Source: Lytechinus pictus
Lineage: Eukaryota
NCBI RefSeq assembly: GCF_037042905.1
Contig: NC_087251.1
Coordinates: 33,048,001-33,112,000, forward strand
Reading direction: 5' to 3'
DNA: 64,000 nucleotides
The first letter of the stretch is position 1; every line of letters begins with the position of its first letter. This document shows, piece after piece, positions 5,337 to 55,583 of the stretch. A model generated the notes under the pieces. That model did no database searches. It saw only the letters and a list, made by a program, of their open reading frames with translations, and was not told the DNA's origin. The position numbers and the translations under genes were made by a program.

Positions 5337-7608
5337 TTAGACTCATACAATGCATGTTCATAATTTCATAAACTTTCCTAAAAAGTCTCTGGTTTGGGTG
5401 GGTATGAATGCGATTTGATCAAATACCGACGCATACATGGTATGCAACGCGCATACGCAGTAGTAAGCGTCGTTTTCATAGTTGCTATGGCAAAAAGCAA
5501 AAAGCGCATGCGTGAGTCGCAGACAGAAGGGTAGTCGGATCGCAAGGTGTGCGGTGTCGAGGCTTATGACTACCTTGCGATTCATCTCCCCTCACTCAGT
5601 CGCAGACCAGTTGGGTTGTAAGGTGTGTGCGGTGGCCTTAAGTTTAACGATGATTTACCCTTCATATAGCTGACAAATGGAAAGACATAAGCTCCTTAAA
5701 ACGTTCATCCACGCTACTCTTACAAAACAGTCCTGTTGCCAAACAATTTTTAGCAAGTGGTCTGAGGTAACTTTGTCCAGCAGGCATACACATTAGAAGA
5801 AATCCAACTTTTGTCAGATCATTAAGATGACAGTGCTGAACCAAGGAGCTTCCTTGGCTGAACAAAGCACAGATCTGCCATACTATTCACAATATCCTAA
5901 GACAAGACCCCTGAACAAATCTGCTTAAGAAAGATAAAGTCATGCTAGCCAGAAAAAAAAAAGAACAAACTCATTTTTCCAGATATGCATGAATACGAAG
6001 AGAAGGGAGTTTGAAACTGTTTTAAGGACAGAAGTTATCAGAACAGAGGAAGGAAAGGGTGACCAAGCTGATAATGGAGCAAGTTCCTCAAGACGTTATA
6101 CCACTCGCTCACATCCTGAAAAACATGAATGATTGAAATACAAGCTGACAAACAAACATGCCTATTTTAATAAACAAGAAACGTCTTCATATGGTTGCCA
6201 GTTGGCCAATAGCTGTAGAGCCTGAAATTTGAGGGAACGTAATGTGGGCTCTGAATGTAAAGTTCTTTGGCGTCTTTTGGGGTACAAGAAAACCTTCAGA
6301 TATAGAAAAAGTCATAGACCCATCCCCCCCCCCCTCTTAATAATTTCCAATATTCACGCACTCACATATGCTTCCAGTTGTAATATAATCTTACATTGTA
6401 CCAAGAATATTCACACATGAAAACCTTTACAGAAATTATTGAACATATAATTACGTAATAAAATAAGGATAAATATAAAGATAAAATGATACTCACAGAA
6501 TTATGTCCAATAAAAAGATAATAATAATAATAGCACTACTTCCTCTGCTGAATATGACTATGCACTTATAATACACTAAATCATGTGTTGTAATAACTGA
6601 CAAGAGATTGAGATCAGTCTTCAAGTCACCTGACATACATTGTGTGTTTGTACTAACAATCCTATTTGAACAAGACAAGATGAGACCTTTCAGATATGGC
6701 TCCTCACAATGTTTGCATAACAAGGCAATCATCAATGGCAGTCATATACTGTATTGCTGGTCTGACAGACTTGTATAATCAATTTAAAATTGATCAGAGC
6801 ATATTTCATAAAATCTACAATAACAGTTTGAAAGCTACTGAAATCATTCAATTTGATTTGCTGATAGTGAACTTGTTATAGAAATTTGGCATTTGTTATT
6901 AAAACATGACTTAAAAAAAAAAAAGATACAAAGTTTATGACAACTTTTATGACATCCACCAGAATACCGATTCTGTCTTCTGTCGTATCTCTGAGACCAT
7001 GTTCAGAATACCGCCCATGGCTCATCCTGGATCCCAATAAGAACTCAGTAGGGCCTATAAAGCCGTCCACAATTCATCAACTCTATTATGGAATGCGAAT
7101 TGAGAACCAGGGCCCTTTATACATTACATTTTTATCATGTTACCTTTTGAAAAATAATTTTTACCTGATAAGTTGGACAATCAGTGTTGACTCTAAACAT
7201 GTCTATGGTCCCTCTTTTTCAACTGTCCATGATATAGATGTTGATCTTCCATTGCACAAAGTACTTTCAGTTTCAGTCATATCATAAAGAATGGTTATTT
7301 TCATTTCCATACATCCATCAAAAGAAGTACAAGTGCCTCCATTAACCTGTTTAACCTCCATTAACAGGTTAATTCCATTAACCTGTTATATATAACAGAC
7401 AAGTGAAGACTATATATGTATCTGCAGAGAGGAATCATCCTCAAAGGTGAAATGTCTGTAGCGTCTTGATGAGTTAAGAAATGATTCCAACTGAAACAAA
7501 GAGTATCAGTGTTGGGATAAGTGCTTCTTCATCCATCCATTGCTACTACCCAGAAATATAATTTCCTCTTGTATAGACAAGACTATAAACAGCTTCTGGG
7601 GAGTCATA

Positions 7609-8404
7609 GGCTGTGTTTATGCGACCTCAAGCCAGAATCATGATTTGAATCATGATTCAAAACACAAACATGAATCACAATATCACAGAATCAGCGTTTA
7701 GACGTCCTTCATTCCAATGCCGTTTCTCCTCAGATTAGGGCCAATCCAGTGCGCATCACTAGTGCGCAGTTTAATAGAGGAAGTTTTTCGCACGTGTGTT
7801 GGCTCTCGAAAAATCTTTTACTTTCATAATTCAGTCTATATACCTCATTTTGTTTACTTCTAGTTCTATCATAGGGTCCATGCTTCTACCCATCTTTTCG
7901 GTTTATGGAAAATGGTATTCGGAAGTGAATTTCAGCGTAGATCCAATTTAATATTGACACTGTTAACTTAACAACTGAGATCCTTGTCCAGTAATAGAAG
8001 TTGAAGTTGAAGACATGACCAAAAAATGATAAGTAGTGGACGATGTGATGACCAACACAGAATTTGAACATTACAAGAAACGCATGTATAGCACATAATT
8101 ATGAACATATACACTGAGCATATAGAGCGCCTTGAGCTTGGCAAGAGTCAAACCGTAAATACCCTGACACAATGACGTCATAGAATCATGATTGTAATCA
8201 CGATATCGTTTATTCGAACATTTTCGTACGTGATTCTGCAGAAACGTCTTTCCAAACGCCCCTTTTTTCGTGTTTCATGTTTGTGATTCTAATCATGATT
8301 ATATTCAATTTCGACTAAACGCAATCGTGATTCTGCAGAATCATAATTTGAATCATGATTCAGATCATGATTCTAGGGTAAAAAAGTGGCGGATAAACGC
8401 ACCC
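7609..8404. mobile_element. PIF/Harbinger-like MITE, copy 1
   Basis: GGCTGTGTTTAT ... ATAAACGCACCC termini with a 3-bp ATA duplication (7606-7608, 8405-8407). Repeated subterminal AATCATGATT motifs. Confidence 0.8.
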
Positions 8405-9927
8405 ATACACATCCAGCCAAAGACATAACTCAAGACCCTACCCCAAAAGACTTCATTCTAGACAGAATGATCGCTTCCCTCCAGTCTCCACATGTTATCA
8501 AAGTGCTATCACAGAAATTAAAGGTTGAAGTTGTTCCTAAAACGAGCCATCACACATCTGCAATATATACATTTAACACAAAAAGTAAAAAGTACCTGAT
8601 GTGCATTTTTATCAGCAATTTTGATGGTTCCAGAAGAGGGATTATAAGGTAATAACAATATTTTACTTTTATAAATTGCTTTTAATACAAATCAAAATGA
8701 CGTCACAAAGTGCTTTATAGATGTATCATTACCGTGTCATCCGATCCCGGCATGCCTGCACGCAATGAATGCACTTTCTCCACTCCCTGGGGAGCATTCC
8801 AAGAAAAGTTTCAAGACACACTTGCTAGGCACAGTGCACCGGCTTTCTGTATCTGAGAGATACTATACAACCATTGGATAGTTGGATAATTCAGAATTAT
8901 TCCAGAAGGTTTTGATATCTTTCAAGTGACTAATATCCAACAAGAGCACATCACAACCTTTCAAACAGTCTCATCAGAAAGCTATTTTCATCGAAAGACC
9001 CATTTTAATTAACTCTTCATGTCACATTCAGACTGTCACACCTGAGAGGTCAGTCTCATTAGACCTTGGCTAAGGACTTGCTGTCAACAAATCTTCAGTG
9101 GACCATGGACGATGATTAGCCAGCGAGGTCAACAATATTTCAGATAACTTGGTAATTGATTTCTGTTTTCTACTTGCAGAAAAGTGATGTGGGGTTATAA
9201 ATAAAAATGCCATAATAAATTTACAGCATATTATGACATTGTCTGAAATACATATATACAGGTACTGTAGGTAAAATAAGTAGGACAATTTTTATCCTTG
9301 AGACAAAGAAACGAGTTATCAATTTAACGAGTTATCAATTCTTGATGGCATGGTTAGTAAAATATGTATGTGTAAAAGAAAATAACCTGTTCTTCTTTAC
9401 AACTTTCTTCTTCCTATAGATCTTGGCATTTTAAGGATCAAGAAAAAGTGTAGCCTATCTGATATGCGCCGGGCTTGTGGGCAAGTTACTGATCGTGTGA
9501 AGGAAACTGACGGACTCAGGCTTCGCCCTCGCCCGGCAGTAGTTTGCCCACTAGCCCAACGCATATCAGATAGGCTAGAACGTAAAATCATTATCAAGCA
9601 AAAACAAATGATTTACTTTGAAATAAAGCAAGCATTGATAAAATTCTCAACTTTTGTCAATCAATATGCCTATCAACATATATTCTGTGAAATGATTTTA
9701 AAAGTGGCATCTTTTATTAAAAAAAGTGTGAACTTATACATGACCCAACGTACAAATCAATTTCAATTTTATATTTTTAAATTTGCTTTTTCTATTCTAC
9801 AGAAATCTGTTCGACGTAGGATAAATTTGGCTTTATACGTAGGCCTACATACATGTATTTTCAATTGATCTTGTCTGAAACAAATTGCTTTGATTTTTAA
9901 TAAGCAAATATCATATGTATATTTAAA

Positions 9928-10728
9928 GGGTGCGTTTATCCGCCAATTTTTTACCCTAGAATCATGATCTGAATCATGATTCAAATCATGATTCTGCAGA
10001 ATCACGATTGCGTTTAGTCGAAATTGAATATAATCATGATTAGAATCACAAACATGAAACACGAAAAAAGGGGCGTTTGGAAAGACGTTTCTGCAGAATC
10101 ACGTACGAAAATGTTCGAATAAATGATATCGTGATTACAATCATGATTCTATGACCTCACTGTTGTGTCGGGCTATTTTCGGTTTGCTCAAGGCGCTCTA
10201 TATGCTTATTGTATGTACATGATTATGTACTACGCATGCATTTCTTGTCATGTTTAAGTTATGTGTTGGTCATCGCATCGTCCACTACTTTTCATTTTTT
10301 GGTCATGTCTTCAACTTAAAGTTCTAGTAAATTAATTAACTGGACAGACAATGATCTCAGTTGTTGTTGAGTATACAGTATCAATATTAAATTGGATCTA
10401 CACCGAAATTCACTTCCGAACACCATTCTGGATAAACTAACAAGATGAATAGAAGCATATGGACCCTATATGAAAGAAGTAAACAAAATGAGGTATAGAC
10501 TGAATTCTGGAAGCAAAAGATTTTTCGAGAGCCGAAACACGTGCGAAGAAAAACTTTCTCTGTCAAACTGCGCACTAGTGATGCGCACTGGATTGGCCCG
10601 AATCTGAGGAGAAACAGCATTGGAATGAAGGTCGTCTAAACGCTGATTCTGTGATATTGTGATTCATGTTTGTGTTTTGAATCATGATTCAAATCATGAT
10701 TCTGGCTTGAGGTCGCATAAACGCAGCC
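9928..10728. mobile_element. PIF/Harbinger-like MITE, copy 2, inverted relative to copy 1
   Basis: Reverse complement of 7609-8404 over its full length. GGGTGCGTTTAT ... ATAAACGCAGCC termini with AAA/TAA flanks. Confidence 0.8.
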
Positions 10729-11676
10729 TAAGATAGTCAAACCTGTAGCAACAATCCGAATAACATATATTTTGCTCAAATCAATTTTAATAACAATTTA
10801 TGTCAGTCTAGACAATCCATTTATTGTTTTGTGCTATGTCCATCTTGACAATAGTAAACAAAATGTGCACTCTAGTGTTGAGAATGTGAGTATTAACAAT
10901 TATGTTCTGTTCGCTCATACCTAGAACCTTCAACTAACTATTCATTATCTGCATATTGCCACTCAATGTCAAGTCAACATGTTTAAGGAGGTGTGTGTGT
11001 GAATCCATGCTTTTTAGTGAATAAAACATTGTCAACATCCCTTTTTGTCCTGAATACCCTGAACTTTGTGACAAATCAACAACCAGTGTTTTCCCTTGAT
11101 AAGATAGCAAATCCTTGCACCATCAAAAAAATTGGGGCAGCCTCCAGGGCCTGTAAATTGTATAATATACAGCATTCTAAACCAAAGTTCTTAAACAAGA
11201 GATAACACTTAATTGATGTTTTGTTTGTAATAATCTCTCGTAATAATCTCCAATATCGTTTGTAACTTCTAAACTGTTGCCACCAGGCATTTTACCGAAA
11301 CGAAACTAAATGCCCCCCCCCCCCCCCCACCGGCCCATATCATTTGACTTTGGCCATAATGCTGTTTTGTTTTACAATCCTTGACTCCTTGCCTTTTGGA
11401 TGAGAACCACATCCAATTCTGCACACTGTCCATCCTAATATCTTTTTTCTCTTGACGAGTGGATACCATGCGCGACCATGGGGTCCCGAAAAGCACCCTA
11501 AACAAGTATTTTCCATATTCTAAAAATGCACCCTGGCCGGATGAGCTAAAAATTCATATTTTAAAATGTGCTGCGTGGCAAAATCGTCAATAATTGTATG
11601 ACCCGTGCGATAGTCCGGGGTTGAGGCATACATTTGTTTTAGTAATTGTAAATGGAAAAATTGTAATTGCAATTGA

Positions 11677-14010: not shown

Positions 14011-16070
14011 AACTTTATCATGAAAGTATTTTCTGGTAGTAAGTAAATAATTTCCATTTACCATAATTTTTTCAATTCTATTTTTTTATGACATTAATAT
14101 TCAACATTTGAACTACGGAAATAAACATGATTTTCATTTGATTCAATGATTGTATTTTGTTTTGGTCCAATTATGCTTAAGTGTCCAATATGTGGGCACT
14201 TTACTCTATTTGTATCATAAAGACAAGAAAGTAAAAAAATCGATTGAGCCCTGTCGGGGGGATTTTGCATTGTTAACCCCCTAATGGCGGCTGCACAATC
14301 GTGAGCCGTCTGTGTAGGAGAATTTATTAAAAATGTTCAAAAACTCCTCGAAACAGACGGCTGCCAGCTGTCTCTAATAACCCCAGCCCACCCATGGGTT
14401 CATTACATACCGCGTGCGAAGGAATATCAAATGCACGCGACACATGCAACTCTTTCATGGGATTTTGCCCAATTAAAAGATACAAACACTAAAATAAAAA
14501 TGTTCACATTGTGCTATCAGCTATGACACCTACCAAATGATCTGAGGTAACTTTGCTGACTTCTCTGCGCATTTTGTTCCAAAGAAATTGTATTTTTCTC
14601 TTGATCTTCACGTAGATGCCTGTAGAAAAGCGACAAAATCAACTTTTTGCCTAAAGAGGGCGCGCAATTATCTTCAAATCAAAGATACTACATAGAAAAG
14701 ACTACGCACAAAAACTATTTTACATGTAAATTGATGCAAAGCATTACGTGAAGTCAGCAAAGTGTCCAATCTTTTTATTGTAAAGACTTTGGTGGAATGT
14801 TCGTTGACAAACGGTAGCACTGCTGGCTTTGCCCAAGGCATGTAGAATTTTCTACTTTTTTGTTTAATTTGTCATTGCTTTGAATGTTTTCCAAAAAGTA
14901 TTATCGTCAGCAAAAAATTATCTAAAGAGTATGTTTTTCATGTTATTGCATTTATTGATGTCTATATTTTATCAAACAATCATGGGAATTTTGCATACAA
15001 TGAATCTAGAATCTAAAGTTAGACTTTAGCTTTTTCTAGTTATAAAATACAGACGAGCAGAATTAAGGTTGTGCATTGTATTAGCGCCACCAACGACCTT
15101 CCTTTTATTTCCGTGGAAGAGACATGCGAAGTCACTTTCCTGGCCGAGGTAAGCGATTTTGCTCTTTTTTATGTGCTTTTTATATTTAAAAAAATATACA
15201 AATTGAAAATGGAAAGCCCGTCAGGCGTCATCTGAAAAAGCCCTGGTGAGTAGCGGAATGAGTTTCGCTACCATCATGACCATTATTCCCGTTATGAAGC
15301 GATGTTAACAGACTAAAATATCCACTGCACGCTGCGTACACACGTTTGTAGTGCAAGGTTAGTATAGTATACTAATCTCGCAATATGTGTGAGTGACCCC
15401 AGCCAAGCTTAGTTAGGCCCAGCGAATACTAAACCGACTTAGTCTTGAGGACTCCATGATGATGTCTTTTTAAAATCCTTTGACGTATACTTCTTCATCA
15501 TTGGAGTCTTGAACCCCGCCCATATATGTATAAGAGACCCAGGTAAACAAAGATGGATTCTTTTCATAAAAGAATCACGTAAAATAGGTTGATTTTATTA
15601 ATTTCTACACCTTCCTACGCCTAATGCGTAGGAAGGTTTTAAAAAATGGTCCCTAAAAATGTTTAAAAATTAAGGTTTCTTACCAGACTGATGTCGTGTA
15701 GATCCCTCGATCCACATGTACACAACGCAAATACAATAGTGTCGACCCTTGAACAGCTTATTATGACGAACATCCGATTAGCGATGCCGGTTTGAAGAAC
15801 AATTTAGGCCATGTAAAAAAAGATAGTAATTGATCGTTCGGGTTTTTTTAGAGCAGTGATGAGGGAGGTCCTTACTATTTGCTATCTTTAATACTATTTT
15901 TTTTAAAAACAAGGAGGCATTTTCTCTGCCCGTTTTTTGACATCAGTGATGAGGGAGGTCCTTACTATTTACTATTTTTTTGCTATTTTTTATTCAAATG
16001 ATTGTCAGGCCATGTCAAGCTTGAATTATGTGATCGATGCATGCTCAATATTAATAATAAATGAGTAGAA

Positions 16071-16107
16071 ATATATATATATAGATATATATATATATAT
16101 ATATATA
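16071..16107. repeat. (TA)n microsatellite
   Basis: ATATAT run with one G interruption. Confidence 0.95.
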
Positions 16108-16220
16108 CAATTGATTGGAAATCTATGGAAAATGTATTATGCGACAAAAATCTATTGATGTATTACTGATGTATACCGGTACTGTATTGTAAAACAAAAT
16201 GTTCATGTCAAGTGAATGAT

Positions 16221-16808
16221 TTAAACGGATGGTCCGGGCTGAAAATATTTATATCTTAATACATAGAGTAGAATTCACTGAGCAAAATGCCGAAAATTTC
16301 ATCAAAATCGGATAATGAATAATAAAGTTATTGAAGTTTAAAGTTTAGCAATATTTTGTGAAAACAGTCGTCATGAATATTCATTAGGTGGGCCGATGAT
16401 GTCACATCCCCAATTTCCGTTGTCTTATGTTATTAAATAAAATCATAATTTTGTCATTATTTCATACTTGTGTGAATAATGTCTCCCTTATAATGAAATA
16501 AGTTGCAGCAATAAATATCTAATGCACTAAATCAGTTGTCAATCCAATTTTTCTAGTTCTTGGAGGAAAAAATTTGAATAAACCCAATTTCATATAATAA
16601 AATACAAAAGAACAAGTGGAGATGTGACATCATCAGCCAACCTAATGAATATTTATGACGACTGTTTTCACAAAATATTGCTAAACTTTAAAATTCAATA
16701 ACTTTGTTATTTGTTATCCGATTTTGGTGAAATTTTCAGCATTTTGCTCAGTGAATTCTACTCTATTTATTAAGCTATAAATATTTTCAGCCTGGACCAT
16801 CCCTTTAA
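16221..16808. mobile_element. Kolobok-like MITE with long TIRs, same family as 114-683
   Basis: TTAA-ACGGATGGTCCGGGCTGAAAATATTT ... AAATATTTTCAGCCTGGACCATCCCT-TTAA, with ~185-bp complementary arms. Confidence 0.85.
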
Positions 16809-17936
16809 ACATTATTTTATATTAATATATATGTAAATAAGGGTAAAAAATGCATGGGGGGGTCATTTTTATTACCATGGAGCCATGTTCAGTTTTCCAG
16901 AGCCAATCTCTTTTCTAGCTCTGGGCATGGTTTCGCATCGCAGTTTCCAGCTGCTTGTATATTCGTTTACATAATGTTTAATACTGTTAAATTTTTATTC
17001 ATTTTTTAAACTGTTAATTGTTCACATGTTTATCATTTCAATATTTGTAACTGTTAAAGTGTTAGATCTATTTAATAACTAATTTTTACAATTGTCCATC
17101 AAATTGAATAGCTCAAGGAAGAATGAAGTTTATCAAATTTGAACAGAATTGGCACTTACTGGAATCCCATTAATGATTTTCAATCTTGATAATGAATAAC
17201 CCACTTGAAATTATTTTTTGAATATTCAATGCATTGCCTGCTGACGTTAGAAAACTCGCCAGAAAATTCAATTCATTTCACAAATTCACATGTCGCGCCA
17301 GCAGTCAATCACATCATCCCAGCACACATGCATTCATCAATCACCGTAGCACACATCGAAGTACAGGCGCTATCACTCACCAAAAAACCCCGCTGAAATA
17401 CAAATTACGTCATTAAAATTGATTTTATAATATCTGCGCCATATTTCCAAAGCACGCGACGGATTAGTTCAGATTCAGGAAACGGGGTCCCTGAAAATGC
17501 ACTAAAAATGAAGAAATCCGTGATCTTTTCCGAGTTTGCAAACTTCTTCTTCTTATGTTGGTTTGAGTGGCGATTAGTCATATTTGACTATTGTCGCCAT
17601 ACTTTATTTTCTGGCTAATTTATGATGGTATCTTCAAAATTCCAATAAAAAACCAAATCAGAATTTTTTTCTTTCTTGCAGTTACGGCGATATCGGACTT
17701 TGCAATTGTTTTTTAATTTTAGTATTTGTGAAATAATAATTTTTATCTATAAATTGTTCTTCAAAACGGCATCGCTAATCGGATGTACGTCATACATAAG
17801 CAGTTCAAGGGTCGACGCTATTGTATTTGCGTTGTGTACATGTGGATCGAGGGATCTACACGACATCAGTCTGGTAAGAAACCTTAATTTTCTAACATTT
17901 TTAGGGACCATTTTTTAACACCTTCCTACGCATTAG

Positions 17937-18745
17937 TAGGGACAGTGATTTTCCGCGATCGCGGAAAACGGACGGAATTCACGGAAAGGGCCTTTTGAAA
18001 CGGAAAGTGGCATTTCAAACGGAAAATCACGGAAAACGTATTTTCCCTCAAAATACACAGAATAGCAACAGAAATTACTCCAAAATCACAGCAAAATGAG
18101 AATATTAAATGGCCAAAAACCCCCAGAAAACACGATCTCACTTCGCTACTATCATGACAATTCACACATTGTGACTGCACTCGACATCAGCACACTCGTT
18201 TGTACCCCGCACCGTACCCGTACCCGGCCGGCCGGATTGGGCTTCACATGCACACATATCGTTCAACTACATGTACACGGTCGTGTGTTGCTGCCCTCTA
18301 CGTTTGAAGATGTAACAGCACGATATCGTGGTCTTAAAATCCAAGATGGCGGATTGGGGAAAAGCCGTTGACTGATGATAACGATGTCCAAAAACCCCCA
18401 AAATTATCGATGAAATATCATTTCACCGTGAAATAATGCTAATAATATGAAAGGTGAGGATGTATGCATGCAAAATGGGTGTGTAAAAATATTTTATGCA
18501 CCCGCATAGATCCGATTAGAACGGATTTTATTGTGTTGTTGGTACAGTAGCAGATACAAATTTTGACCAGTGCGAGTGTGCGTGTTGTGATTTTGCTATT
18601 CAATGTGTAAACGGAATTGTCACTTTTCCGTGTGTACAAAGTTTATGGGGAAACGGAATTTCCGTTTTCTGACATGCTGAAACGGAATTTGAGATTTTCT
18701 GAAACGGAAAAGGCAATTTTTTGAAACGGAAAATCACTGTCCCTA
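17937..18745. mobile_element. hAT-like MITE with 6-bp TSD
   Basis: Perfect 19-bp TIR TAGGGACAGTGATTTTCCG. CATTAG is duplicated at 17931-17936 and 18746-18751. Many subterminal ACGGAA motifs. Confidence 0.85.
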
Positions 18746-18760
18746 CATTAGGCATAGGAA

Positions 18761-20237
18761 TAGTCTTGAGGACGCAATGATGATGACTTTTAAAATCCTG
18801 TCATATACTTCTTCATCATTGACGTCTTGAACAGGCCTTCATAGACATGTAAGAGAACGAAGTAAACAAAGATGGATTTCCCTAGGAAATCCATCTTTTC
18901 ATAACAGAATCGCGTGAAATACGTTTATTTTATTAATTTCTACACCTTCCTACGCCTAATGCGTAGGAAGGTTTTAAAAAATGTTAGATAAAAATGTAAA
19001 AAAATAAAGGTTTCTTACCTAACTGATGCCGCGTAGACCCCTCAATCCACATGTAAACAACGGAAATACAATAGCGTTGACCCTTGAACCGCTTATGTAT
19101 GACGTACTTCCGGCTAGCAATGCCGATTTGAAGAACAATTTATAAATAAAAATTATTTTACAAATACTAAAATTTATTCGTAATTATAAATAATTTTCAG
19201 TATACCAATTATTTATAATTACGTAATAAATTTTATTATTTATAAAATAATTTTTATTTATAAATTGTTCTTCAAAACGGCATTGCTAGCCGGAAGTACG
19301 TCATACATAAGCGGTTCAAGGGTCAACGCTATTGTATTTCCGTTGTTTACATGTGGATCGAGGGGTCTACGCGGCATCAGTTAGGTAAGAAACCTTAATT
19401 TTTTTACATTTTTTCTAACATTTTTTAAATAAAATAAACGTATTTCACGCGATTCTGTTATGAAAAGATGGATTTCCTAGGGAAATCCATCTTTGTTTAC
19501 TTCCTTCTCTTACATGTATATGAAGGCCTTTTCAAGACTCCAATGATGAAGAAGTATGTCAATTTTTTTTTAAAAAGACATCATCATGGAGTCCTCTACC
19601 TCAGGCGATGTTCGTGCAGGCTCCACTCCACTTCACTACCGCTACACTACGCTCCACCTACCCGAACATCGGGACAGTGAACTCGATCGGATATTCCTAG
19701 TCACAAAGGTGGGATGGCAATCATGGTTATCGTAAAAATTAAAGAAAAAAAATATAACGAGGGATATGAATGACTTAATATCTTACTCTACACCCATATT
19801 TCACTCCGTGTCCATCCTCCGGTTATCCTCAAAATTGGTGATTTTGGGCCAGTATCTTTTTCCTTACACGTATTATTCACGGCCGATTTCAAAACATTGC
19901 ATGCGATTGGTCGCTGATCGATTGCGATGTTTTGAAATCGGCCGTGAATAATACGTGTGAGGAAAAAGATACTGGCCCAAAATCACCAATTTTGAGGATA
20001 ACCGGAAGATGGATATGGAGTGAAATACGGGTGTAGAATAAGATATTAAGCTATTTATCTGTCTCGTTATATTTTTTAGGGTAATTTTTACAATAAACCA
20101 TCATTTCATCCCACCTTTGTCACTCAGTATATCCGAAATGGATCACCGTCCCGAAATTCGGGTAGGTGGAGCGTAGTGTAGCGGTAGTGAAGTGGAGCCT
20201 GCACGAACATCGCCTGAGGTAGGAGTCCTCAAGACTA
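18761..20237. mobile_element. Foldback element B (second copy of family A), inserted into the right arm of A
   Basis: TAGTCTTGAGGAC ... GTCCTCAAGACTA. Arms of about 430 bp pair around an AT-rich centre at ~19200. The right end is interrupted by 19597-20221. Confidence 0.85.
19597..20221. mobile_element. Palindromic 625-bp element with 9-bp TSD
   Basis: TACCTCAGGCGATGTTCGTGCAGGCTCCACT ... AGTGGAGCCTGCACGAACATCGCCTGAGGTA. GGAGTCCTC occurs at 19588-19596 and 20222-20230. Arms pair to a centre near 19910. Confidence 0.88.
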
Positions 20238-21045
20238 GCGTAAGACTAAGTCTAAGAAGACCGTGTAGAAATTAATAAAATCAACCTATTTTACGCGATT
20301 CTTTTATGAAAAGATGGATTTCCTAGGGAAATTGGCATTATCGTGGTTTATGTCACCAGTCCATTCACTGCCGTTTATTTCGACAGCGGTGGTGACATCT
20401 TTCCACTCCCATCAGTAGAGGCGCACGGCCAATATTGGAGACTATCTCCAATGTGGGAGATTATCTCCAATATCAGAGACTTTTGTAAAGAATTTTGGTA
20501 TCCAATTTTAGAGACAGTCTCCAGTTTTGGAGTCCAATTTCCTTTGTTTACATTTGCTGCAAAAGGATTACCTTGGCGGCAAATAAAAATGTGATAAGCA
20601 GATTCCTCATTAAAAAGGCCAAATTCGCTATTGTGCCCAAGCGCCATTAAAACTGCTCAGCCCAGTGAAAATTCTTATCGCTAGACGTGCGTAAGAGCAT
20701 GTGCGACCGGTGTCACACATGACCGCACAATAACAAAGCTCAGTCAGCGGGATATCGGCGTTCAGTGAAGTGGCGTGTTAATGGGTATTTCAGCTGTGCG
20801 AGAGAGGGGCGGGGATTAGGGATTGGGGGGGGGGGGTGAAGGGGCACTAAAATATATGAAATCGGCGGGTTTTCAATAAAATACTATGTGCATCGTATTT
20901 TCGTTTTCTTTTTGTGTTTTCTGTATGATACATGGTGGGTGGATTTATTCCTCATTCATTCATTCCATCCAATTTATTCATCATACTGCACATTTCATTT
21001 CATATCATATTACATAACACTGTTTTACTAACCTTATTTTTTCTG

Positions 21046-21116
21046 TCCTTGATGGGAATCGAACTCGAACCTTTTGATCTGCAGTCCAGCATCGTAGTCA
21101 GCACGCCACATGAGAT
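21046..21116 (-). pseudogene. Degenerate tRNA-like sequence (CTGCAGA loop, Cys-like)
   Basis: Minus strand reads GTGGCGTGCTGACTACGATGCTGGACTGCAGATCAAAAGGTTCGAGTTCGATTCCCATC. A B-box-like GTTCGATTCC is present but the stems pair poorly. Confidence 0.45.
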
Positions 21117-21971
21117 GAGCTGACAGCCGAAACTGGTTTAGCGCTCAAGTCGTACGGAGGTTTCCCCGGCGGCAGTTAGCAGGCCAGGGAATCAACGATC
21201 CGTGATTTAATTAATTAGAAAATATATATATTTAAGGATCCAGGGGCTATAGATAATGGTACCAATAATTCCAAACAGGATTTTGTTATTTTTTTCACTT
21301 CGTTTATATTATCGCTATGTATTTTAACACGATGTGCGTTTACTATTGAGTATATTGAGTCACCTGAAATAACACCCGGAACTTTTCTCTGTTTAGGCAA
21401 CAGGGGGCCTAAACATGGAACAAAAAACTCACGCAACTAGTTTGCACTTGATGTTCGTAGTCGGCGTGTAGGCCTAAAACTTTATTTTAACATATATATA
21501 GCTTCCTTTTTTTCATTCTAAACTCCCAAGTTATCCCCTCTACAGCAAACATCATGTCGCTATCGGTCCGCCAATATACGATCTTCTCGGATATTTTAAA
21601 ATAAATGTGGCATTTTGGTAGGCACGGCAAAATTGAAAAAAAAAGTATGCACAAGAAATTGTAAATAATTTCATATACTCACTTTTGCGTTATCCTTCTT
21701 GGTTATATATAAATGCCCCGTTATATTGAATTTTAACCTCCTTCACTCCTTCCGCCAAATTATTCCAAGTCAACAAATTTCCTCATTTTTTTTTCGCCCG
21801 GCAAGCTCATCAATCATCTCTCTCATTAAACCTTTCTTTCTTCACTCTAATCCTCTCAAACAATCCTCACTCTAATCCTCTGCGAAAAGTTGCGCCCTCC
21901 ATGTCAATCGTGCCCCACTGACATCAAGATGTGTCTTGCCGCATCTCGCACATAATGCATAAACTTTTATG

Positions 21972-24900
21972 CATGATTTTATATATTCATGAACTTTCAC
22001 TTTATGCTGTATTTTTATGTTGTTTCTCAATTTTCCTCCTTCGCGTTATTGCTTTATTCCGTAATTGTTAAACTCTATATAGGGCATTTTATTATGTCCA
22101 ACATTTTTGCGTATCTTTTCTACTCTTCCATCGTCACCCTATCATAAATGGATTTTGTCAATGTTAGCTTATTTTTATTTTCCTCAAGAAAGAGCAAGAC
22201 GGACTATTAAAGATACAGATGTATATTCCAAAGGTGATTAGCTACAAATACGGAATAAAGGAAAAACATATGTTAAAACGCAATTTGATTTTTTTGTGGG
22301 GCAAATTGATTAAGGTGTTAGTATAGTGACAAACTTCACTAAATACGGGATAAAGCTTATAGAGAAAACGGAAAACTTGGTGAGCATAGGGACGAATCAA
22401 CCGAGATTCTAATAATTACTATTGACCGGAGGGCGGGAAAAGTGGTGTTCTGGGTTTGAAATGTCTGTCTGGGCGGGGGGTAGAGCGAAGGAAAAGTATA
22501 TAAGGCAACAAAAATGGGAGGCATATTCGGGTGAGAGTATAAAATCTTCAACAAAATACGTAAAAACCGATATAGTAAAGTTGAAACGCAATAATATATA
22601 TATATATTTTTTTTTTTTGGGGGGGGGGCATAATTATTTAGGTGCTAATAAAGAGTGACAATTAAGCTTCACCAAAACACGGAATAAAGTAATAAAGAAA
22701 AGTTTGTGGGCATAAAGTACTAATGAATGATCGAGCCAAGATTCTTAATTCTCTATTGCTTTAGTCCGTATCAATTTGATGCAGTATAGAGTGACTGCAT
22801 AAAAAATATACAGAATAAAGCAATACAGAAATGTTGGCATATTAAGGTGCTGGTATAAAGTGACAAACTTATCAAAATACGGAATAAAGCGATATAGAAA
22901 ATTTTGAACACAATTTAATTTTCTGTGGGTATATTAAGGTGCTAGTATAGAGTGACAAACTTCATAAATATACGGAATAAAGCAATATAGAAAAGTCGGT
23001 GGGCATCTTAAGTTGCTAGTATACAGGCCCAAATTTCTTGAAATATGGAATAAAGCAAGAGAGAAATGTTCTCATTTAATTGATTCCTCAAAAATTGAAT
23101 ATGTTATTTTTATACAATTGTTTTACTAGTGATGATTCTGATTTTAATGTTATTGATATCGAATTTATTCACTATTTGTATATAGAACCTAAGTTACACT
23201 TTTATCTTTTTGTATATATTGTTATTTCATTTTAACAGGACCATGTTTAAAAACAGTGAATCTGAGCTTGTTATCCTGTATAAAGATATTTAAATAAATA
23301 AATAAATTTGTTATATTTGTTTATAGTCTTCATTCTTTATGGTGTATATTGCTTTTATTACGTGTCTCTGTGTCTTTTTTTTTCTTTTTTTCATCTGTTC
23401 ATGATTTTATTTATTCATGAACTTTCACTTTATGCTGTATTTTTATGTTGTTTCTCAATTTTCCTCCTTCGCAATATTGCTTTATTCCGTAATTGTTAAA
23501 CTCTATATGGGGCACTTTATTATGTCCAACATTTTTGCGTATCTTTTCTACTCTTCCATCGTCACCCTATCATAAATGGATTTTGTCAATGTTAGCTTAT
23601 TTTTATTTTCCTCAAGAAAGAGCAAGACGAACTTTTAATGGTACAGATGTATATTTCAAAGGTGATTAGCTGCAAATATACGGAATAAAGGAAAAACACA
23701 TGTTAAAACGCAATTTGATTTTTTTGATGGGCAAATTGATTAAGGTGTTAGTATAGTGACAAACTTCACTAAATACGGGATAAAGCTTATAAAGAAAACT
23801 TGGTGAGCATAGGGACGAATCAACCGAGATTCTAATAATTACTATTGACCGGAGGGCGGGAAAAGTGGTGTTCTGGGTTTGAAATGTCTGGCTGGGCGGG
23901 GGGTAGAGCGAAGGAAAAGTATATAAGGCAACAAAAATGGGAGGCATATTCGGGTGTTAGTATAAAATCTTAAACAAAATACGTAAAAACCGATATAGTA
24001 AAGTTGAAACGCAATAATATATATATATTTTTTTTTTGGGGGGGGCATAATTATTTAGGTGCTAATAAAGAGTGACAATTAAGCTTCACCAAAATACGGA
24101 ATAAAGTAATAAAGAAAAGTTTGTGGGCATAAAGTACTAAGTGATGATCGAGCCAAGATTCTTAATTCTCTATTGCTTTAGTCCGTATCAATTTGATGCA
24201 GTATAGAGTGACTGCATAAAAAAAATGAAATAAAGCAATACAGAAATGTTGGCATATTAAGGTGCTGGTATAAACACAGTGACAAACTTATCAAAATACG
24301 GAATAAAGCGATATAGAAAATTTTGAACACAATTTAATATTCTGTGGGTATATTAAGGTGCTATAGTATAGAGTGATAAACTTCATAAATATACGGAATA
24401 AAGCAATATAGAAAAGTTGGGCATATTAAGTTGCTAGTATACATGCAGGCCCAAATTTCTTGAAATATGGAATAAAGCAAGAGAGAAATGTTCTCATTTC
24501 ATTGATTCCTCAAAAATTGAATATGTTACTTTTATACAATTGTTTTACTAGTGATGATTCTGATTTTAATGTTATTGATATCGAATTCATTCACTATTTG
24601 TATAGAACCTAAGTTACACTTTTATCTTTTTGTATATATTGTTATTCCATTTTAACAGGACCATGTTTAAAAACAGTGAATCTGAGCTTGTTATCCTGTA
24701 TAAAGTTATTTAAATAAATAAATAAATTTGTTACGTTTGTTTATAGTCTTCATTCTTTATGGTGTATATTGCTTTATTACGTGTCTCTGTGTTTTTTTTC
24801 TTCTTTTTTTCATCTGTTCATGATTTTATTTATTCATGAACTTTCACTTTATGCTGTATTTTTATGTTGTTTCTTAATTTTCCTCCTTCGCAATATTGCT

Positions 24901-25825
24901 TTATTCCGTTATTGTTAAACTCTATATAGGGCATCTTATTATGTCCGACATTTTTGCGTATCTTTTCTACTCTTCCATCGTCACTCTATCATAAATGGAT
25001 TTTGTCAATGTTAGCTTATTTTTATTTTCCTCAAGAAAGAGCAAGACGAACTTTTAATGGTACAGATGTATATTCCAAAGGTGATTAGCTACAAATACGG
25101 AATAAAGGAAAAACATATGTTAAAACGCAATTTGAATTTTTTGATGGGCAAATTGATTAAGGTGCTAGTATAGTGACAAACTTCACTAAATACGGGATAA
25201 AGCTTGTAGAGAAAACTTAGTGAGCATAAGGACGAATCAACCGAGATTCTAATAATTACTATTGACCGGAGGGCGGGAAAAGTGGTGTTCTGGGTTTGAA
25301 ATGTCTGGCTGGGCGGGGGGTAGAGCGAAGGAAAAGTAAGGCAACAAAAATGGGAGGCATATTAGGGTGTTAGTATAAAAACTTCAACAAAATACGTAAA
25401 AACCGATATAGTAAAGTTGAAACGCAATAATATATATATATATTTTTTTTTTTGGGGGGGGCATAATTATTAAGGTGCTAATAAAGAGTGACAAGCTTTA
25501 CCAAAATACGGAATAAAGAAAAGTTTGTGGGCATAAAGTACTAAGTGATGATCGAGCCAAGATTCTTAATTCTCTATTGCTTTAGTCCGTATTAATTTGA
25601 TGCAGTATAGAGTGAGTGCATACAAAATATACAGAATAAAGCAATACAGAAATGTTGGCATATTAAGGTGCTGGTATAAAGTGACAAACTTATCAAAATA
25701 CAGAATAAAGCGATATATAAAATTTTGAACACAATTTAATATTCTGTGGGTATATTAAGGTGCTAGTATAGAGTGACAAACTTCATAAATACACGGAATA
25801 AAGCAATATAGAAAAGTTGTTGGGC
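21972..25825. repeat. Tandem triplication of a ~1.42-kb unit (third copy partial)
   Basis: CATGATTTTAT(A/T)TATTCATGAACTTTCAC recurs at 21972, 23400 and 24819, each followed by colinear, highly similar sequence. Confidence 0.92.
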
Positions 25826-27560
25826 ATATTAAGGTGATAGTATAGAGTGACAAGCTTCATGAAAATACGGAATAAAGCAATATTGAAGAGTTGTTGGGCA
25901 TATTAAGGTGCTAGTATAGAGTGATGAACAAGCCAAGATTCTAATAATTCGTGTTGGCCCGGAGGGCGAGAAAAGGGGTTTTCTTTTGGGGGTATATAAG
26001 CAGCGGACAGGGGGATTGAAATGTCTGAGGGGGGATAGAGCGAAAAGAGAAAAGTAGGAAAGGCATATTTTATTCAAAATTCTTTTGGGCATATTAAGGT
26101 GCTAGTATAGAGTGACAAGCTTCATGAAAATACGGAATAAAGCAATATTGAAAAGTTGTTGGGCATATTAAGGTGCTAGTATAGAGTGATGAACAAGCCA
26201 AGATTCTAATAATTCGTGTTGGCCCGGAGGGCGAGAAAAGGGGTTTTCTTTTGGGGGTATATAAGCAGCGGACAGGGGGATTGAAATGTCTGAGGGGGGA
26301 TAGAGCGAAAGAGAAAAGTAGGAAAAGCAAATTTTATTCAAAATTCTTTTGGGCATATTAAGGTGCTAGTATAGAGTGACAAGCTTCATGAAAATACGGA
26401 ATAAAGCAATATTGAAAAGTTGTTGGGCATATTAAGGTGCTAGTATAGAGTGATGAACAAGCCAAGATTCTAATAATTCGTGTTGGCCCGGAGGGCGAGA
26501 AAAGGGGTTTTCTTTTGGGGGTATATAAGCAGCGGACAGGGGGATTGAAATGTCTGAGGGGGGATAGAGCGAAAAGAGAAAAGTAGGAAAAGCAAATTTT
26601 ATTCAAAATTCTTTTGGGCATATTAAGGTGCTAGTATAGAGTGACAAGCTTCATGAAAATACGGAATAAAGCAATATTGAAAAGTTGTTGGGCATATTAA
26701 GGTGCTAGTATAGAGTGATGAACAAGCCAAGATTCTCATAATTCGTGTTGGCCCGGAGGGCGAGAAAAGGGGTTTTCTTTTGGGGGTATATAAGCAGCGG
26801 ACAGGGGGATTGAAATGTCTGAGGGGGGATAGAGCGAAAAGAGAAAAGTAGGAAAGGCATATTTTATTCAAAATTCTTTTGGGCATATTAAGGTGCTAGT
26901 ATAGAGTGACAAGCTTCATGAAAATACGGAATAAAGCAATATTGAAAAGTTGTTGGGCATATTAAGGTGCTAGTATAGAGTGATGAACAAGCCAAGATTC
27001 TAATAATTCGTGTTGGCCCGGAGGGCGAGAAAAGGGGTTTTCTTTTGGGGGTATATAAGCAGCGGACAGGGGGATTGAAATGTCTGAGGGGGGATAGAGC
27101 GAAAAGAGAAAAGTAGGAAAAGCAAATTTTATTCAAAATTCTTTTGGGCATATTAAGGTGCTAGTATAGAGTGACAAGCTTCATGAAAATACGGAATAAA
27201 GCAATATTGAAAAGTTGTTGGGCATATTAAGGTGCTAGTATAGAGTGATGAACAAGCCAAGATTCTAATAATTCGTGTTGGCCCGGAGGGCGCGAAAAGG
27301 GGTTTTCTTTTGGGGGTATATAAGTAGCGGACAGGGGGATTGAAATGTCTGAGGGGGGATAGAGCGAAAAGAGAAAAGTAGGAAAGGCATATTTTATTCA
27401 AAATTCTTTTGGGCATATTAAGGTGCTAGTATAGAGTGACAAATTTCATGAAAATACGGAATAAAGCAATATATAAAAATTGTTGGGCATATTAAGGTGC
27501 TAGTATAGAGTGACAAATTTCCTGAAAATACGGATTTAAGCAATATAGAAAAGTTGTTGA
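25822..27560. repeat. 265-bp tandem array, six near-identical copies plus decaying ~71-bp subunits
   Basis: Period of 265 is visible in the repeated ORF starts (26358, 26623, 26888, 27153, 27418). Each unit has two GGGCATATTAAGGTGCTAGTATAGAGTGA motifs. Confidence 0.95.
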
Positions 27561-27780
27561 AGTTCATGAAATACGCAATAAAAACGATCGAATGTCGACC
27601 TTTAGAAATAGCACCGAAATACTTCACATCCCCGATCCCCTAAAAAAAAAAAAACCATGTTGAGGTTCGATCCACAAACGCTTAGATGCCTACGTATTAT
27701 GCACTGCGCCGCGCTCACCTATTCACTCGTCGTAGTGAAATTAAGATTTATATATACCGCGTAAAGCTTTACCAACAAAA

Positions 27781-27896
27781 AAAAATCCGGGACGGGCGCA
27801 AAACGCACACATATGAACACACGGGTACAGTGCTTCGCGAAGCGAAGCACTGTGTGTGTTCATATGTGTGCGTTTTGCGCCCGTCCCGGATTTTTT
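27781..27896. repeat. GC-rich hairpin capped by GCGAAGC
   Basis: AAAAAATCCGGGACGGGCGCAAAACGCACACATATGAACACAC ... ACAGTGCTTCGC-GAA-GCGAAGCACTGT ... reverse complement. Confidence 0.9.
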
Positions 27897-29485
27897 ACTT
27901 AGATGAGCGGTATTAATGGCGGCTGGGCATATTAGCTAATATGGCCATTAAAAATTACCCCTTTTCACCGTCTACTTAAAAAAAAAATTCACCGCCTACT
28001 TTTGTTTTGATAAGGATTTTTGTCGTCAATCACACACAAAACAAATGGGCTTCTGACCTCAGTGAGACAAAATTTTGGGTGGAAAAAATCATGCTTTTGT
28101 TGGTGTTGTTTCTTTTGTCCTTTTGCAAAGCAAGTCTCCAATGTGGGAGATTGTCTCCCCTATTGGAGAGAGTCTCCCATATTGCTCTACTGCCCATTGA
28201 CTTTGTACACAACGAGCGCACACACACGAGAAGAGAGGTGACAAATTTCACGATAAGGCCGGGAAATTCATCTTTGTTTACCTGGGTCTCTTATACATAT
28301 ATGGGCGGGGTTCAAGACTCCAATGATGAAGAAGTATACGTCAAAGGATTTAAAAAAGACATGATCATGGAGTCCTTAACTAAGAGTAAGACTAAAACCG
28401 GCTATGCCACAAAGCTCCGGGGGCGCGGCAGCGGAGCTCCCCGCCTAGGCTTGCAGCTGCAGCAGCTAGCGGCGACGCAAACCTGGTTTCCCCTTTCTCT
28501 AGCCTCATCTAATGTCAAAATAAGGCTTAGACCTTACATAAAAGCATTAATATGTTTTTAATATCGTAAGATAACACATAGGCCATATCACATTCTTTCA
28601 AAATACTCACACATTCATATTACACATGAAGTTTCGCAATTCTTTCTGGAAAGGAGAGGTCAGTAAGTCTCGAGCGAGCAGAGCTGAATTGAGATATTGT
28701 TATGATGTCGCCGAAGTTTCCAATTGCAGAACGAAAAAAAAAGTTGTTTTTGTTTTAGCTTATATTCAGCAGTGAATATTTGTGCCAAGAAAAGAAAAGA
28801 ATACTGATAATCGTGGTCTAATGAATTATGCGTCAATTTTGTATTTCAGTAACGGAAATTCCATTCCTTTTCACTCAAAGTGCAAATTTAAAAGTGTGTG
28901 AACCAAATGATAGATGCCTTCTTTTAGGTTCTAACAAGTTCCCTTTTAATAGAAAGTCCAATCCGATAAGGGCCCTTTAAGTTAGTCTGGTTTTAGCCCA
29001 GATCGGTCACAGAGGTGGCTATTTTCAATGGACCATTCCATCGCACTACTCTGTGGCACTACTCCGTCCTCCTAGTACCAAATCACAAGCTTGATAGTTT
29101 CTGAACAATACAAAAACACTTACATCCAGCAAAGGCTCCCCATGGCAATCAGAGGCGCGGAACCGGATGGGGGCTTCAGTCTCCTCTTTTTTTTAAATAA
29201 ACGTATTTAAAAACGTAAAAAAGGTTCATCTGATCTTATATTTGCATAGTAAGCCCCCAGGGGAAAAAATCAAAACCGTTCTGCAGCCCCATGGTGATGA
29301 ATATAGTATATGTCTTTCTTTTTTTTTATACTTTTTTTTATTATTTAGTTCCACTTTGTTTACATCAGATTTAGCATGGACCTACTCATGGTTTTAGCAT
29401 ATATGCAGTATTATTAGCATTCGCAGTATGCTCATAAAAAACCTCCTTGGTTAAATATATTTCTCTGAAATTTGGGCAGATGTTT

Positions 29486-29700
29486 GGCGCGATAGCTCAG
29501 TCGGTAGAGCGGGGGATTCGTATTCCGGTGACCCGGGTTCGATTCCCACTTGGTGCGCTAGTGCCCTTTGGTAAGGCATTAATCCTCATTACCAGGTCCT
29601 TCGGAGAGGACCTTAAGCCGTCGGCCCTCTGGTTGCTTGCTTACAAGCCTTCATGCTTTCTTAGCAATCAGGTAAAAAATCCCCACCAAACCACCACCAA
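29486..29700 (+). mobile_element. tRNA-derived SINE
   Basis: A box TAGCTCAGTCGG and B box GGTTCGATTCC, followed by a non-tRNA body GTGCCCTTTGGTAAGGCATT...GAGGACCTTAAGCCGTCGG. No terminator directly after the head. Confidence 0.8.
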
Positions 29701-34560: not shown

Positions 34561-36224
34561 TATTGGCCTCGCGAAATGCGAGCTGACAATTTTTTATTAT
34601 AATAGGACCGGGACATTTTAAGGATATTTTGTCATCATGTCTGAGAAATGTTTTGTATAATTATATACTTAAAAACTTGATAATTTAAAGCAGATACGAA
34701 CCAATAGCACCATCTAGAGTCCTCAACTACTCATACCAGGCCAGTTTCCTGACCCATTGTGCTAGCGTAGTCTAGTAATATAGACCCACTTGAATGATAA
34801 CATGCTAATTAACTACTCAATACATTTAGACCGCAATAAACAAGTAGCAAAAATTACTTTTCCCCTCAAAACATTTTAATTTCTCTATACAAATACAATT
34901 ATAGGTCAATTTATTCTCTATAGTATTAGTAGATATCTGAAAACGTATATTTTAAGACTATGTATTAATATAACACACAGTCAATGAGAGACCACATACA
35001 GTTCACTCCCCCTTTAAACTCCATGTCAGCTTAGTGACCAAGACATGTACAGGACAGTGCGAGCACGAAGCGTGAGCGAAAATTTTATATAGTGACATAA
35101 TAAAATGTCTTCTAACCTTATTTTATTTACTCGTCTTCCTCGATCCTCTTATTTTTTATTTTCATTTTCTCCTCTGTTTTCCTTTCTTTTTCTTTCTTTC
35201 TTTCCTTCCTCCCCCCCCCCCTTATACAAGTAGTGGGGGGAGGGACATTTGATATTGTGTCCCCCCTTTCAAAACTAAAATGGGGGGACGTGTTCCCCCT
35301 GTGATTTCCGCCCATGCATGGTGATGCCAATTTGACAAGCAAAAGAAAAAAAGTTTCATTCCAAAATAAAGGTCATTTTCGTCCCAAGAAATTTGACAAA
35401 AAAGAAAGGGTTTCTATAAAAAAAAATGTAGGTAATTTTGGTTACATTTGTCCATTTTGTCACACCGTCCAGAATTCCTGGGGGTGCTGCCTATGGAAAA
35501 TAATACAAGCAGCACCCCCAAGGAAAATCTTGGGAGTGCTTCAGCACCCCCAGCACCCCCGCTTCCCAGGGCCATGATCTTTCCGTGCAGGGAACCGCGT
35601 AAACTGGGGCAGTACGCATGCCACCCCTATCATGTATATAACGGACATACTAAAGGTCCTTTCCAGTTAGGTTCACCTAAACAATATAAGACTTCAGCAC
35701 CAAATTCTGTTTATTTATGATATCTTTTCTAATTCTTTGCAATGGCGTACCATGCTATACCGATTCGGGATGCTGTATTTTATGGTAATTTCTAACTACA
35801 GGGCTTTAACAGAGGCAGCGGAACATCAAGCTCGGACAAAGGAAGTGGAGGGACACCTTTTCTCTGCCAAACAATAGGTGTCCCTCCACTATCATTGTAT
35901 GAGCCTGACGTTCCGCCTGACGGCGGGCCGCCTCTGCAAGGAGATATTGTATGCACATGAATGTTGCAGTGATCTGAAGTCGGATTACTATAAAGAGAAT
36001 AACCATTAATCATGTATTGCCTATGATGATCGGAACGATCATTAGCAAATTTCACGCCGTGAATCAACAAAGTATCTCGGAGTCAAGACTCTTAAGTTTT
36101 TGCAAAATTATTAGACTAGCGATCCTGAAGAACTCCAGTTCCGAGAACCTCGCATAAAGATTTTGGGGAATAAAAAACAACGCTGTAAGAAAAGAATTGC
36201 ACCTTGAAACTTGTCAGAAATGAG

Positions 36225-36420
36225 ATGGAAACCTGTTCGATTTTCAGGAATTCAAGCGCCCTTAAAACGGTCTTGGCTTTATTTCTTCAGACGTGTCATT
36301 TCTTAGGAACTGTGAAATGCATTGGGGTTTATCTACCGGACCTGAATCGGACATTAGGACTATCGTCAACTGATATTGGTCTTGCTATTGGATTATTCGA
36401 AGCACTTTCATTCGTTCCAG
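36225..36420 (+). CDS. Duplicate first coding exon (1A) of the SLC16/MCT-like gene; alternative first exon or truncated paralogue
   Basis: 196 nt from ATG to CAG|GTAAAC, with 7 substitutions and no indels relative to 55584-55779. Encodes METCSIFRNSS...GLFEALSFVP. Confidence 0.55.
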
Positions 36421-36711
36421 GTAAACAAATTACGAGTTTGGTGTAAAATGGAAAAAAAGGAATAGGATGATTATATGATAGAAAATCAGCAATTTTCACA
36501 ACATTTTCAACCTGCTATCCAAACTAACAAGGAATATAATTTGTATTTATTAGACATATAAACTAATAAAAATGTTAACCCATACCTACTCCTGACACCA
36601 CAACCATATTTCCCAGGTGGATTTTTAATGAACTACATCCATTTTTTCAGTAACCGCAGTCAATTTAGACTCCATTTTTAGAAGCCATCTTGGTTTTTTT
36701 TTACATAGGGA

Positions 36712-39700: not shown

Positions 39701-39775
39701 TAGACTTCGTGCATCCATCATAACTGGAATAAGTGTAGACTCCTGGAATATGGAGCAGGCTAATTATTGTTTGTA
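36712..39775 (-). mobile_element. 5'-truncated non-LTR retrotransposon, probably RTE-X clade, frameshifted
   Basis: Endonuclease end (SNLDLVLV..TSDHLPV), W..GRPR motif, RT motifs (NYRGISL, QSGFQ, YLDAANAFDTVWH, LADDVAL) and C-terminal C-x-C-x8-H-x4-C across ORFs 39432-39782, 38304-39344, 37327-38196 and 36854-37393. (GAA)n tail at ~36712. Confidence 0.9.
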
Positions 39776-55005: not shown

Positions 55006-55583
55006 AAAGGTTTTACAATCAAGTCATGAACTAACTAACCTTCCGGGCAGGGAACCGTGTAAGCTGGGGCCAGTATTCACCTCTGTACAGACCCCTGTAC
55101 TGGTATTCAAGTTTATACTGTGCTATAGGCCCTTTCCAGTTGGGTTCACCTTAACAATATAAAACTTCAACACCAAATTCTATTTATTCATATTTTGTCT
55201 ATTATATAGCCTACCATCACCGATTCGGTTCGGATGCTGTATTATATGGTAATTTCTAACTATAGGTTTTATAAGCATGAAAATATTGTATGCATGACAT
55301 AGAATCGCACATGTTGTGGTGATCTGAAGTCGGATTACTGCATAGAGAATGATCATTAATCTGGTTTTGCCTATGCGGATGATCGGAATGATCACTAGCA
55401 AAGTTTCCGCCGTGAAGCAACAAAGTATCTCGGAGTCAGACTCCTTTTAAGTTTTTGCAAGATTATTTAGACTAGCGATCCTGAAGAAATCCGGATACGA
55501 GAACCTCGCAGAAAGATTTTATTGGGGAATAAAAAACTACGCTGTAAGAACAAAATCGCACCTTGAAACTTGTCAGAAATGAG

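Follow-up and report, generated by a model that had tools for sequence, protein, structure and literature searches.

The subject of this analysis is a 64,000-nucleotide (nt) stretch of Lytechinus pictus DNA, referred to as the window, and in it a block at 15431-28403 (all positions are in window numbering). This 13-kilobase (kb) block is a genuine pile of at least six gene-less transposon copies, one inside another. The outermost copy is a foldback element, the host (H), whose two arms enclose a centre (X). Element A lies in the centre, elements C, B and E interrupt the right arm, B is a sister copy of the host that itself carries element D, and E carries element F. Terminal inverted repeats (TIRs) are present in H, B, A, C, D, E and F.

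The borders of the insertions were located by their target-site duplications (TSDs). Four such motifs had been named in an earlier note on this DNA, and each is found exactly twice at element borders, flanking TIRs: CATTAG at 17931 and 18746 (element C; a third, unrelated CATTAG lies at 16382), GGAGTCCTC at 19588 and 20222 (element D), GGGAAATT at 20326 and 28261 (element E) and ATTAAAAA at 20609 and 27947 (element F). The proposed outer flank of the block, AAACCG(A/G)CT, was likewise found, with copies at 15431 and 28395 that agree at eight of nine positions. The TSDs are perfect for A (4 base pairs, bp), C (6 bp), D (9 bp), E (8 bp) and F (8 bp), that of the host is an 8/9 match and that of B is damaged; the earlier count of at least six insertions with TSD lengths of 4, 6, 8 and 9 bp stands. 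Given the composition of the window, the chance of a matching second copy is 3e-4 for C, 1e-6 for D, 2e-5 for E, 9e-5 for F, 1e-2 for A and 2e-4 for the 8/9 match of the host. An automated scan of the window for TIRs with TSDs returned 109 candidates, mostly palindromic pseudo-TSDs within long inverted repeats; as H, A, B, E and F were absent from these, the scan served as a lead list only.

The earlier note had also held that removal of the inserts by their TSDs rebuilds the right arm of the host, and this was confirmed. When C, B and E were excised, the pieces at 17750-17936, 18752-18760, 20263-20333 and 28269-28394 joined into an arm with 96.5% identity to the left arm at 15440-15806 (353 of 366 aligned columns), compared with 87% to sister copy B. 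The host and B are 87-88% alike. Of the 45 columns at which the left arm of the host and B differ, the right-arm pieces agree with the host in 39, with B in four and with neither in two; the farthest piece, 28269-28394, has the host allele at 16/16 diagnostic columns. The alignment to the left arm and the host alleles at the diagnostic columns indicate that the pieces are parts of one element. Furthermore, the two TSD copies of E have in common a T at a position occupied by C in B, which is what a true duplication would give. As had been claimed, nesting reaches at least three levels, along two lines: F within E within H, and D within B within H.

The possibility was considered that the block is partly misassembled from repeat copies of different loci. 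Contigs of four sequencing runs from four studies were mapped on 14100-21900 (runs X8-X14 and X19-X23, with a small or zero share of the sampled words, were unused). No contig spanning the junction of the host with its flank, or the whole of 14100-21900, was found among the best-supported rows, the best 15 of 971 joints, and no listed run held half of the sampled words. Moreover, the copies of the 265-bp array in F are 98-100% identical, and their number could be wrong. However, the six TSD pairs in the correct nesting order and the uniform host alleles (16/16) in arm pieces 12.9 kb apart are unlike chimeric joins, and the 1.42-kb units in F differ by 2.3-3.4%. Misassembly is considered very improbable.

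Table 1. Components of the nested block at 15431-28403
Feature	Position	Strand	Remarks
Left 9-bp TSD of host H	15431..15439	+	8/9 match to 28395-28403
Left arm of host foldback H	15440..15806	+	Hairpin 1 at 15609-15637; 16-bp deletion across tip of hairpin 2
Centre X	15807..17714	.	Repetitive, non-coding
Element A	16225..16804	.	580-bp TIR element, TTAA TSD (Kolobok-like), in centre X
Host right arm, piece 1	17715..17936	+	Ends in left TSD of C, at loop of hairpin 1
Element C	17937..18745	.	809 bp, TAGGG...CCCTA ends, 19-bp perfect TIR, 6-bp TSD
Right TSD of C and host right arm, piece 2	18746..18760	+	Piece of 9 bp, in the stem of hairpin 1, serves as left target copy of B
Element B	18761..20237	.	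Complete foldback, same family as the host; 843 bp with D removed; 87% to H
Element D	19597..20221	.	625-bp palindromic TIR element, perfect 9-bp TSD, 7 bp from right end of B
Damaged right TSD of B	20238..20262	+	5 nt of target and 20 nt of filler repeating the terminal heptamer of B
Host right arm, piece 3	20263..20333	+	Ends in left TSD of E; hairpin 2 (stem and tip)
Element E	20334..28260	.	589 bp when empty, GG...CC ends, 8-bp TSD (Merlin-like)
Element F	20617..27946	.	7.3 kb, GG...CC ends, imperfect TIR of ~60 bp (77%), 8-bp TSD
Tandem units in F	21972..25830	+	~2.7 units of 1.42 kb, 96.6-97.7% alike
Tandem array in F	25820..27513	+	6.4 copies of a 265-bp unit, 98% matches
Hairpin G	27780..27896	.	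117 bp, adjoins right TIR of F, no clear TSD
Right TSD of E and host right arm, piece 4	28261..28394	+	10-bp addition 7 bp from end
Right 9-bp TSD of host H	28395..28403	+	8/9 match to 15431-15439

The ends of the two foldback copies are not entirely regular. Element B has no clean TSD: the left copy is GCATAGGAA and the right one keeps GCGTA, after which 20 nt of filler replace 5 nt, and this filler probably arose by repair. The right ends of both H and B read as a doubled terminal heptamer. The 10-bp addition in H occupies the same near-right-end position as D in B (28369-28394 compared with 20222-20248); a scar left when a D-like element excised, filler from repair or an asymmetric family end could each explain it.

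Centre X, 1.9 kb long, takes the place where B has an 86-bp near-perfect palindromic apex, and it either belongs to the host as its interior or has replaced such an apex. Neither a TSD nor a TIR was found for it, and X was not accepted as a seventh insertion. If it is the normal interior, the empty host measures 2,119 bp. The earlier description of six events in a small host of about 0.9 kb holds for the events; the host size perhaps needs revision to 2,119 bp, and F does not lie in foldback DNA but in E, which is of an unrelated family. In run X1 the contig depth of the centre was 166-679 times that of the interior of F and that of the H arm 403-431 times, and X shares the drop in depth of H and B in three of its four bins for run X6 and in two of four for run X16. 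This pattern, which resembles that of the H and B arms, is suggestive of X as the host interior, and it is only a hint because contig depth is no copy number. A stretch of 59 bp at 17542-17600 of the window is skipped by contigs of all four runs, and the joint has a direct repeat of 4 bp; either the stretch was gained here as a small insertion or most copies have lost it.

Elements H, B, A, C, D and E exist in many dispersed copies, and the interior of F is low-copy. The summed contig depth of the six was hundreds to thousands of times that of the F interior, read here as depth and not as copy number, and all 25 depth bins across 14100-20624, including 1.3 kb of left flank, were far above the F interior (runs X1 and X6). 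The left flank of the block is likewise repeat DNA. At the ends of element A (16221 and 16808), hundreds of loose contig ends carry unlike flanks, a second copy lies at 124-683 of the window and one joint of run X6 skips most of the element. One contig of run X16, 1,403 nt in length, aligns with 20617-21900 apart from 8 differing letters and 7 gaps and breaks off at the left end of F, which suggests different flanks for F in that run. Two motif patterns of the H/B family gave 0 matches in metagenome contigs, and its motifs gave none in viral contigs or prokaryote genomes. To the left of the block, a repeat ends at 14373 (14340-14373) with many unlike flanks; a short hairpin before this point looks like a Helitron 3' end. 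Four contigs of run X6 join the end at 14373 to the start of the B family at 18761.

No transposase was found in the block. The open reading frames (ORFs) considered were 64 stop-to-stop frames of at least 55 amino acids (aa), of which 19 were scanned against Pfam, with 0 matches. No transfer RNA (tRNA) was found in the block by ARAGORN. Rfam gave 13 weak matches, all under the gathering score, and those of microRNA type were rejected as the palindromes of D and G. Within F, a stretch at 21043-21109 on the minus strand resembles by eye a decayed tRNA of the kind that heads short interspersed elements; it is absent from the ARAGORN and Rfam results. The two repeat tiers of F (1.42 kb and 265 bp) have a 74-bp subunit in common, and this low-copy element is possibly a proto-satellite carrier. 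Hairpin G is either part of F or a fourth nesting level.

The superfamily labels of A, C, E, F, H/B and D are fits to element ends and TSDs and are accordingly putative. The 9-bp TSD and long TIRs of H/B and D are as in Mutator/Foldback elements (PMC3169594), no autonomous partner with the same ends and a MURA-type transposase was found for either in the window, and no tandem arm repeats of the FB/Tm1 type were reported in 15440-15806 or 18761-19596. The hATm group has TAGGGTG termini and an 8-9-bp TSD (PMC6004678). It was rejected on termini for H/B, which start with TAGTC, and for C, which starts with TAGGGAC and has a 6-bp TSD. For C, which also has subterminal repeats of 19-22 bp, its TSD length would presumably fit hAT6 or IS3EU. 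No paper confirming a 6-bp rule for hAT6 was found, and PMC5753468 and PMC8721813 yielded nothing usable about TSDs of 6 bp. Merlin elements have 5'-GG termini and an 8-9-bp TSD, and imperfect TIRs and internal tandem repeats are also known among them (PMC8101967). Both E and F have GG...CC ends and perfect 8-bp TSDs in agreement with this, E has 19-bp subterminal repeats, and no DDE_Tnp_IS1595 transposase was present among the 19 block ORFs scanned. Kolobok elements have a TTAA TSD and 5'-RR...YY-3' termini (PMC9587614); element A has the TTAA and a right end that reads AG on the minus strand (RR), and its left end, AC, is one change off.

The arms of H and B contain a feature that bears on how the nest arose. 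Each complete arm has two perfect hairpins of 29-31 bp, one with a 14-bp stem and a 3-nt loop and the other with a 12-bp stem and a 5-nt loop; when arms were shuffled, a stem of at least 10 bp appeared in five of 200. In arm coordinates, the TSD of C (196-201) covers the 5-nt loop of hairpin 1, the TSD of B (187-195) ends at the edge of this loop and the TSD of E (115-122) ends within the 3-nt loop of hairpin 2. Element D is the one arm insertion not at a hairpin. With a probability of tip placement of 0.049 per event, the value for three of four events is 4e-4 and rises to 0.013 when two hits alone are counted, both calculated post hoc. The arms of B are 96% alike, and a 40-bp deletion in its right arm takes out hairpin 1. 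Together with the 16-bp deletion in the left arm of H it removes the same two hairpins, which suggests folding in vivo. Half of the hairpin copies in H and B (4/8) are untouched.

The nest likely grew by successive cut-and-paste insertions into repeat-derived DNA, where new insertions would probably be harmless and so tolerated. The transposases, of at least four types, would have been supplied in trans, and every insertion would have made the target bigger. The host presumably came first. Element B probably preceded C, as the TSD of B is decayed and that of C is perfect, E would have arrived after the C-to-T change that both of its TSD copies carry, and F after E; D may have arrived later than B or along with it. 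Where in the arm the events fell was probably biased by the two short hairpins. Instead of proving that the family as a whole attracts insertions, H is likely to be an extreme case in a genome with very many repeats. Ordinary accumulation of this kind, with a local hairpin bias, is the reading that we hold with modest confidence. Ordinary nesting is also found elsewhere in the window, where a repeat family at 55311-57177 holds a 651-bp TIR element that is missing from the copy near 36595.

The earlier note had proposed that the foldback family is a landing pad for unrelated transposases beyond chance expectation. The participation of several unrelated transposase types is supported by the differing TSD lengths and termini, and this part was retained. 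The family-wide excess is treated here as a proposal, given that F lies in E, that the host may be 2.1 kb long, that the left flank is repeat DNA as well and that B has a single insert. Foldback-family DNA holds five of the six recognised direct insertions in the window on 18-27% of the listed TIR-element DNA, giving P 9e-4 with a 0.87-kb host and 7e-3 with a 2.1-kb host, values that are inflated because H was picked for being loaded with inserts. Element B, the only unselected copy of the family, has one insert compared with 0.1 expected (P 0.10). At an assumed 0.5-1 insertions per kb, four inserts in a 0.87-kb host have a probability of 1e-3 to 1e-2, so that with 1e5 copies, a number likewise assumed, hosts of this kind should be numerous. 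The outcome depends on the true insertion rate, and the rates used here are assumed.

Several observations weigh against ordinary accumulation. The other 15 listed TIR elements and hairpins (8,016 bp) have one direct insertion, F in E; inserts in their unpaired interiors would escape this listing. At the 0.12 inserts per kb apparent in the window, four inserts in 0.87 kb have P 5e-6. A second foldback at 7604-10733, with 826-bp arms, has no arm gap of more than 12 bp. Furthermore, cuts at hairpin tips in three of the four arm insertions are not a prediction of neutral accumulation.

The last point would be accounted for by a structure-directed landing pad, in which the hairpins extrude as cruciforms, unrelated transposases capture the bent tips and the whole family is loaded at fixed positions. 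The cuts of C, B and E at hairpin loops, the deletions of the same hairpins in two other arms and the rarity of such stems in shuffled arms are consistent with this mechanism. The closest precedent is the transposition of RAG, a DDE transposase that placed 84% of its in-vitro insertions at cruciform tips in work cited in PMC1618415. As in the block, the insertions were at the tip of an inverted repeat. However, the RAG cruciforms had 53-bp arms in supercoiled plasmids (PMC1618415), compared with stems of 12-14 bp here, which would have to extrude in chromatin, and the system was a single enzyme in vitro, compared with in-vivo remnants of three different elements whose enzymes are inferred. In addition, the pattern was seen at one locus and defined after the data had been seen, B and C are adjacent and perhaps not independent, D is off the hairpins and half of the hairpin copies are intact. 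Such a pad is possible, if somewhat unlikely. A more specific proposal, that in the germ line of this animal the two hairpins of an abundant foldback family are both hotspots of deletion and structure-defined targets for transposases of three or more unrelated types, is considered unlikely. If it were true, cruciform-tip capture, so far mainly known in vitro for RAG, would shape transposon landing in a real genome, and a pattern holding family-wide would offer a natural high-copy test of whether DNA structure or sequence steers transposases of several superfamilies in vivo.

An effect of the locus itself was also considered, by which this chromosomal place gains or keeps insertions through low recombination, open chromatin or local hopping beside element ends. 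Galileo elements at inversion breakpoints became hotspots of secondary insertion, which was ascribed mainly to reduced recombination (PMC2775673). In the block, C and B are only 9 bp apart, and D in B and the 10-bp addition in H share one position near the right end. However, a broad regional effect fits poorly since the other TIR elements of the same 64 kb are mostly uninterrupted, with clean arms in the foldback at 7604-10733. A locus effect is regarded as quite unlikely.

Nesting of transposons is already well known, and the block leaves that knowledge unchanged; the idea of a targeted family is also in print, for rice Ditto elements and for Galileo. In rice, more than 10% of 6,600 miniature inverted-repeat transposable elements, or MITEs, were multimers, and Ditto is a MITE family hit by many others (PMC5172404, the latter citing Jiang and Wessler 2001). 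These rice and maize multimers are, like the block, non-autonomous TIR elements nested by independent events, and Castaway and Gaijin inserted into themselves as B did in H (PMC5172404). Ditto was demonstrated by a count over thousands of elements, whereas here there is one loaded copy in an animal genome with three cuts at hairpin tips. Galileo and GalileoN of Drosophila buzzatii resemble H in being long-TIR, foldback-like hosts of several nested class II elements with their own TSDs; they differ in a 7-bp TSD, membership of the P superfamily and location at inversion breakpoints (PMC2775673). The TSD of H, by contrast, is 9 bp long, and neither a transposase nor evidence of a breakpoint is known for it. 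The Tm1 Mutator/Foldback elements of Meloidogyne share with H/B the long TIRs, the 9-bp TSD and non-coding members of about 1 kb, some with nested unrelated elements, but their TIRs consist of 14-bp tandem repeats, in place of which the H/B arms have the two short hairpins (PMC3169594). Nested insertions in coding Mutator-like elements are comparable to the genome average (PMC3903597), and nested plant long-terminal-repeat elements reportedly have a weak palindrome preference (PMC6911290). No paper on the H/B family or on hairpin-tip nesting in animal MITEs was found in a literature search that covered few subscription journals. The cuts at hairpin tips are the one unusual and new detail, at a single locus and with a pattern defined post hoc. 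The block as a whole is a clean teaching example of transposon stratigraphy, in which the sequence itself reveals most of the order of six TSD-bounded events.

The surroundings are as expected for an animal genome, with a GC content of 28-49% across the window and reverse-transcriptase remnants. The foldback-like element at 7604-10733 has arms that are 88% alike and rich in a 10-bp palindrome, with a 127-bp hairpin mid-way (9451-9577). The other repeat family has two copies, at 34578-40044 and 54061-57177; its 651-bp TIR element occupies 56189-56839, and the first copy adjoins a 3-kb reverse-transcriptase remnant at 36854-39839. ARAGORN reported tRNA-Thr(CGT) and another tRNA, of anticodon TCA, at 29487-29558 and 59486-59557, either of which may be a repeat-borne look-alike. 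The only clear piece of a host gene seen was a 367-aa ORF at 60445-61545 with a match to MFS_1 (E 4e-14).

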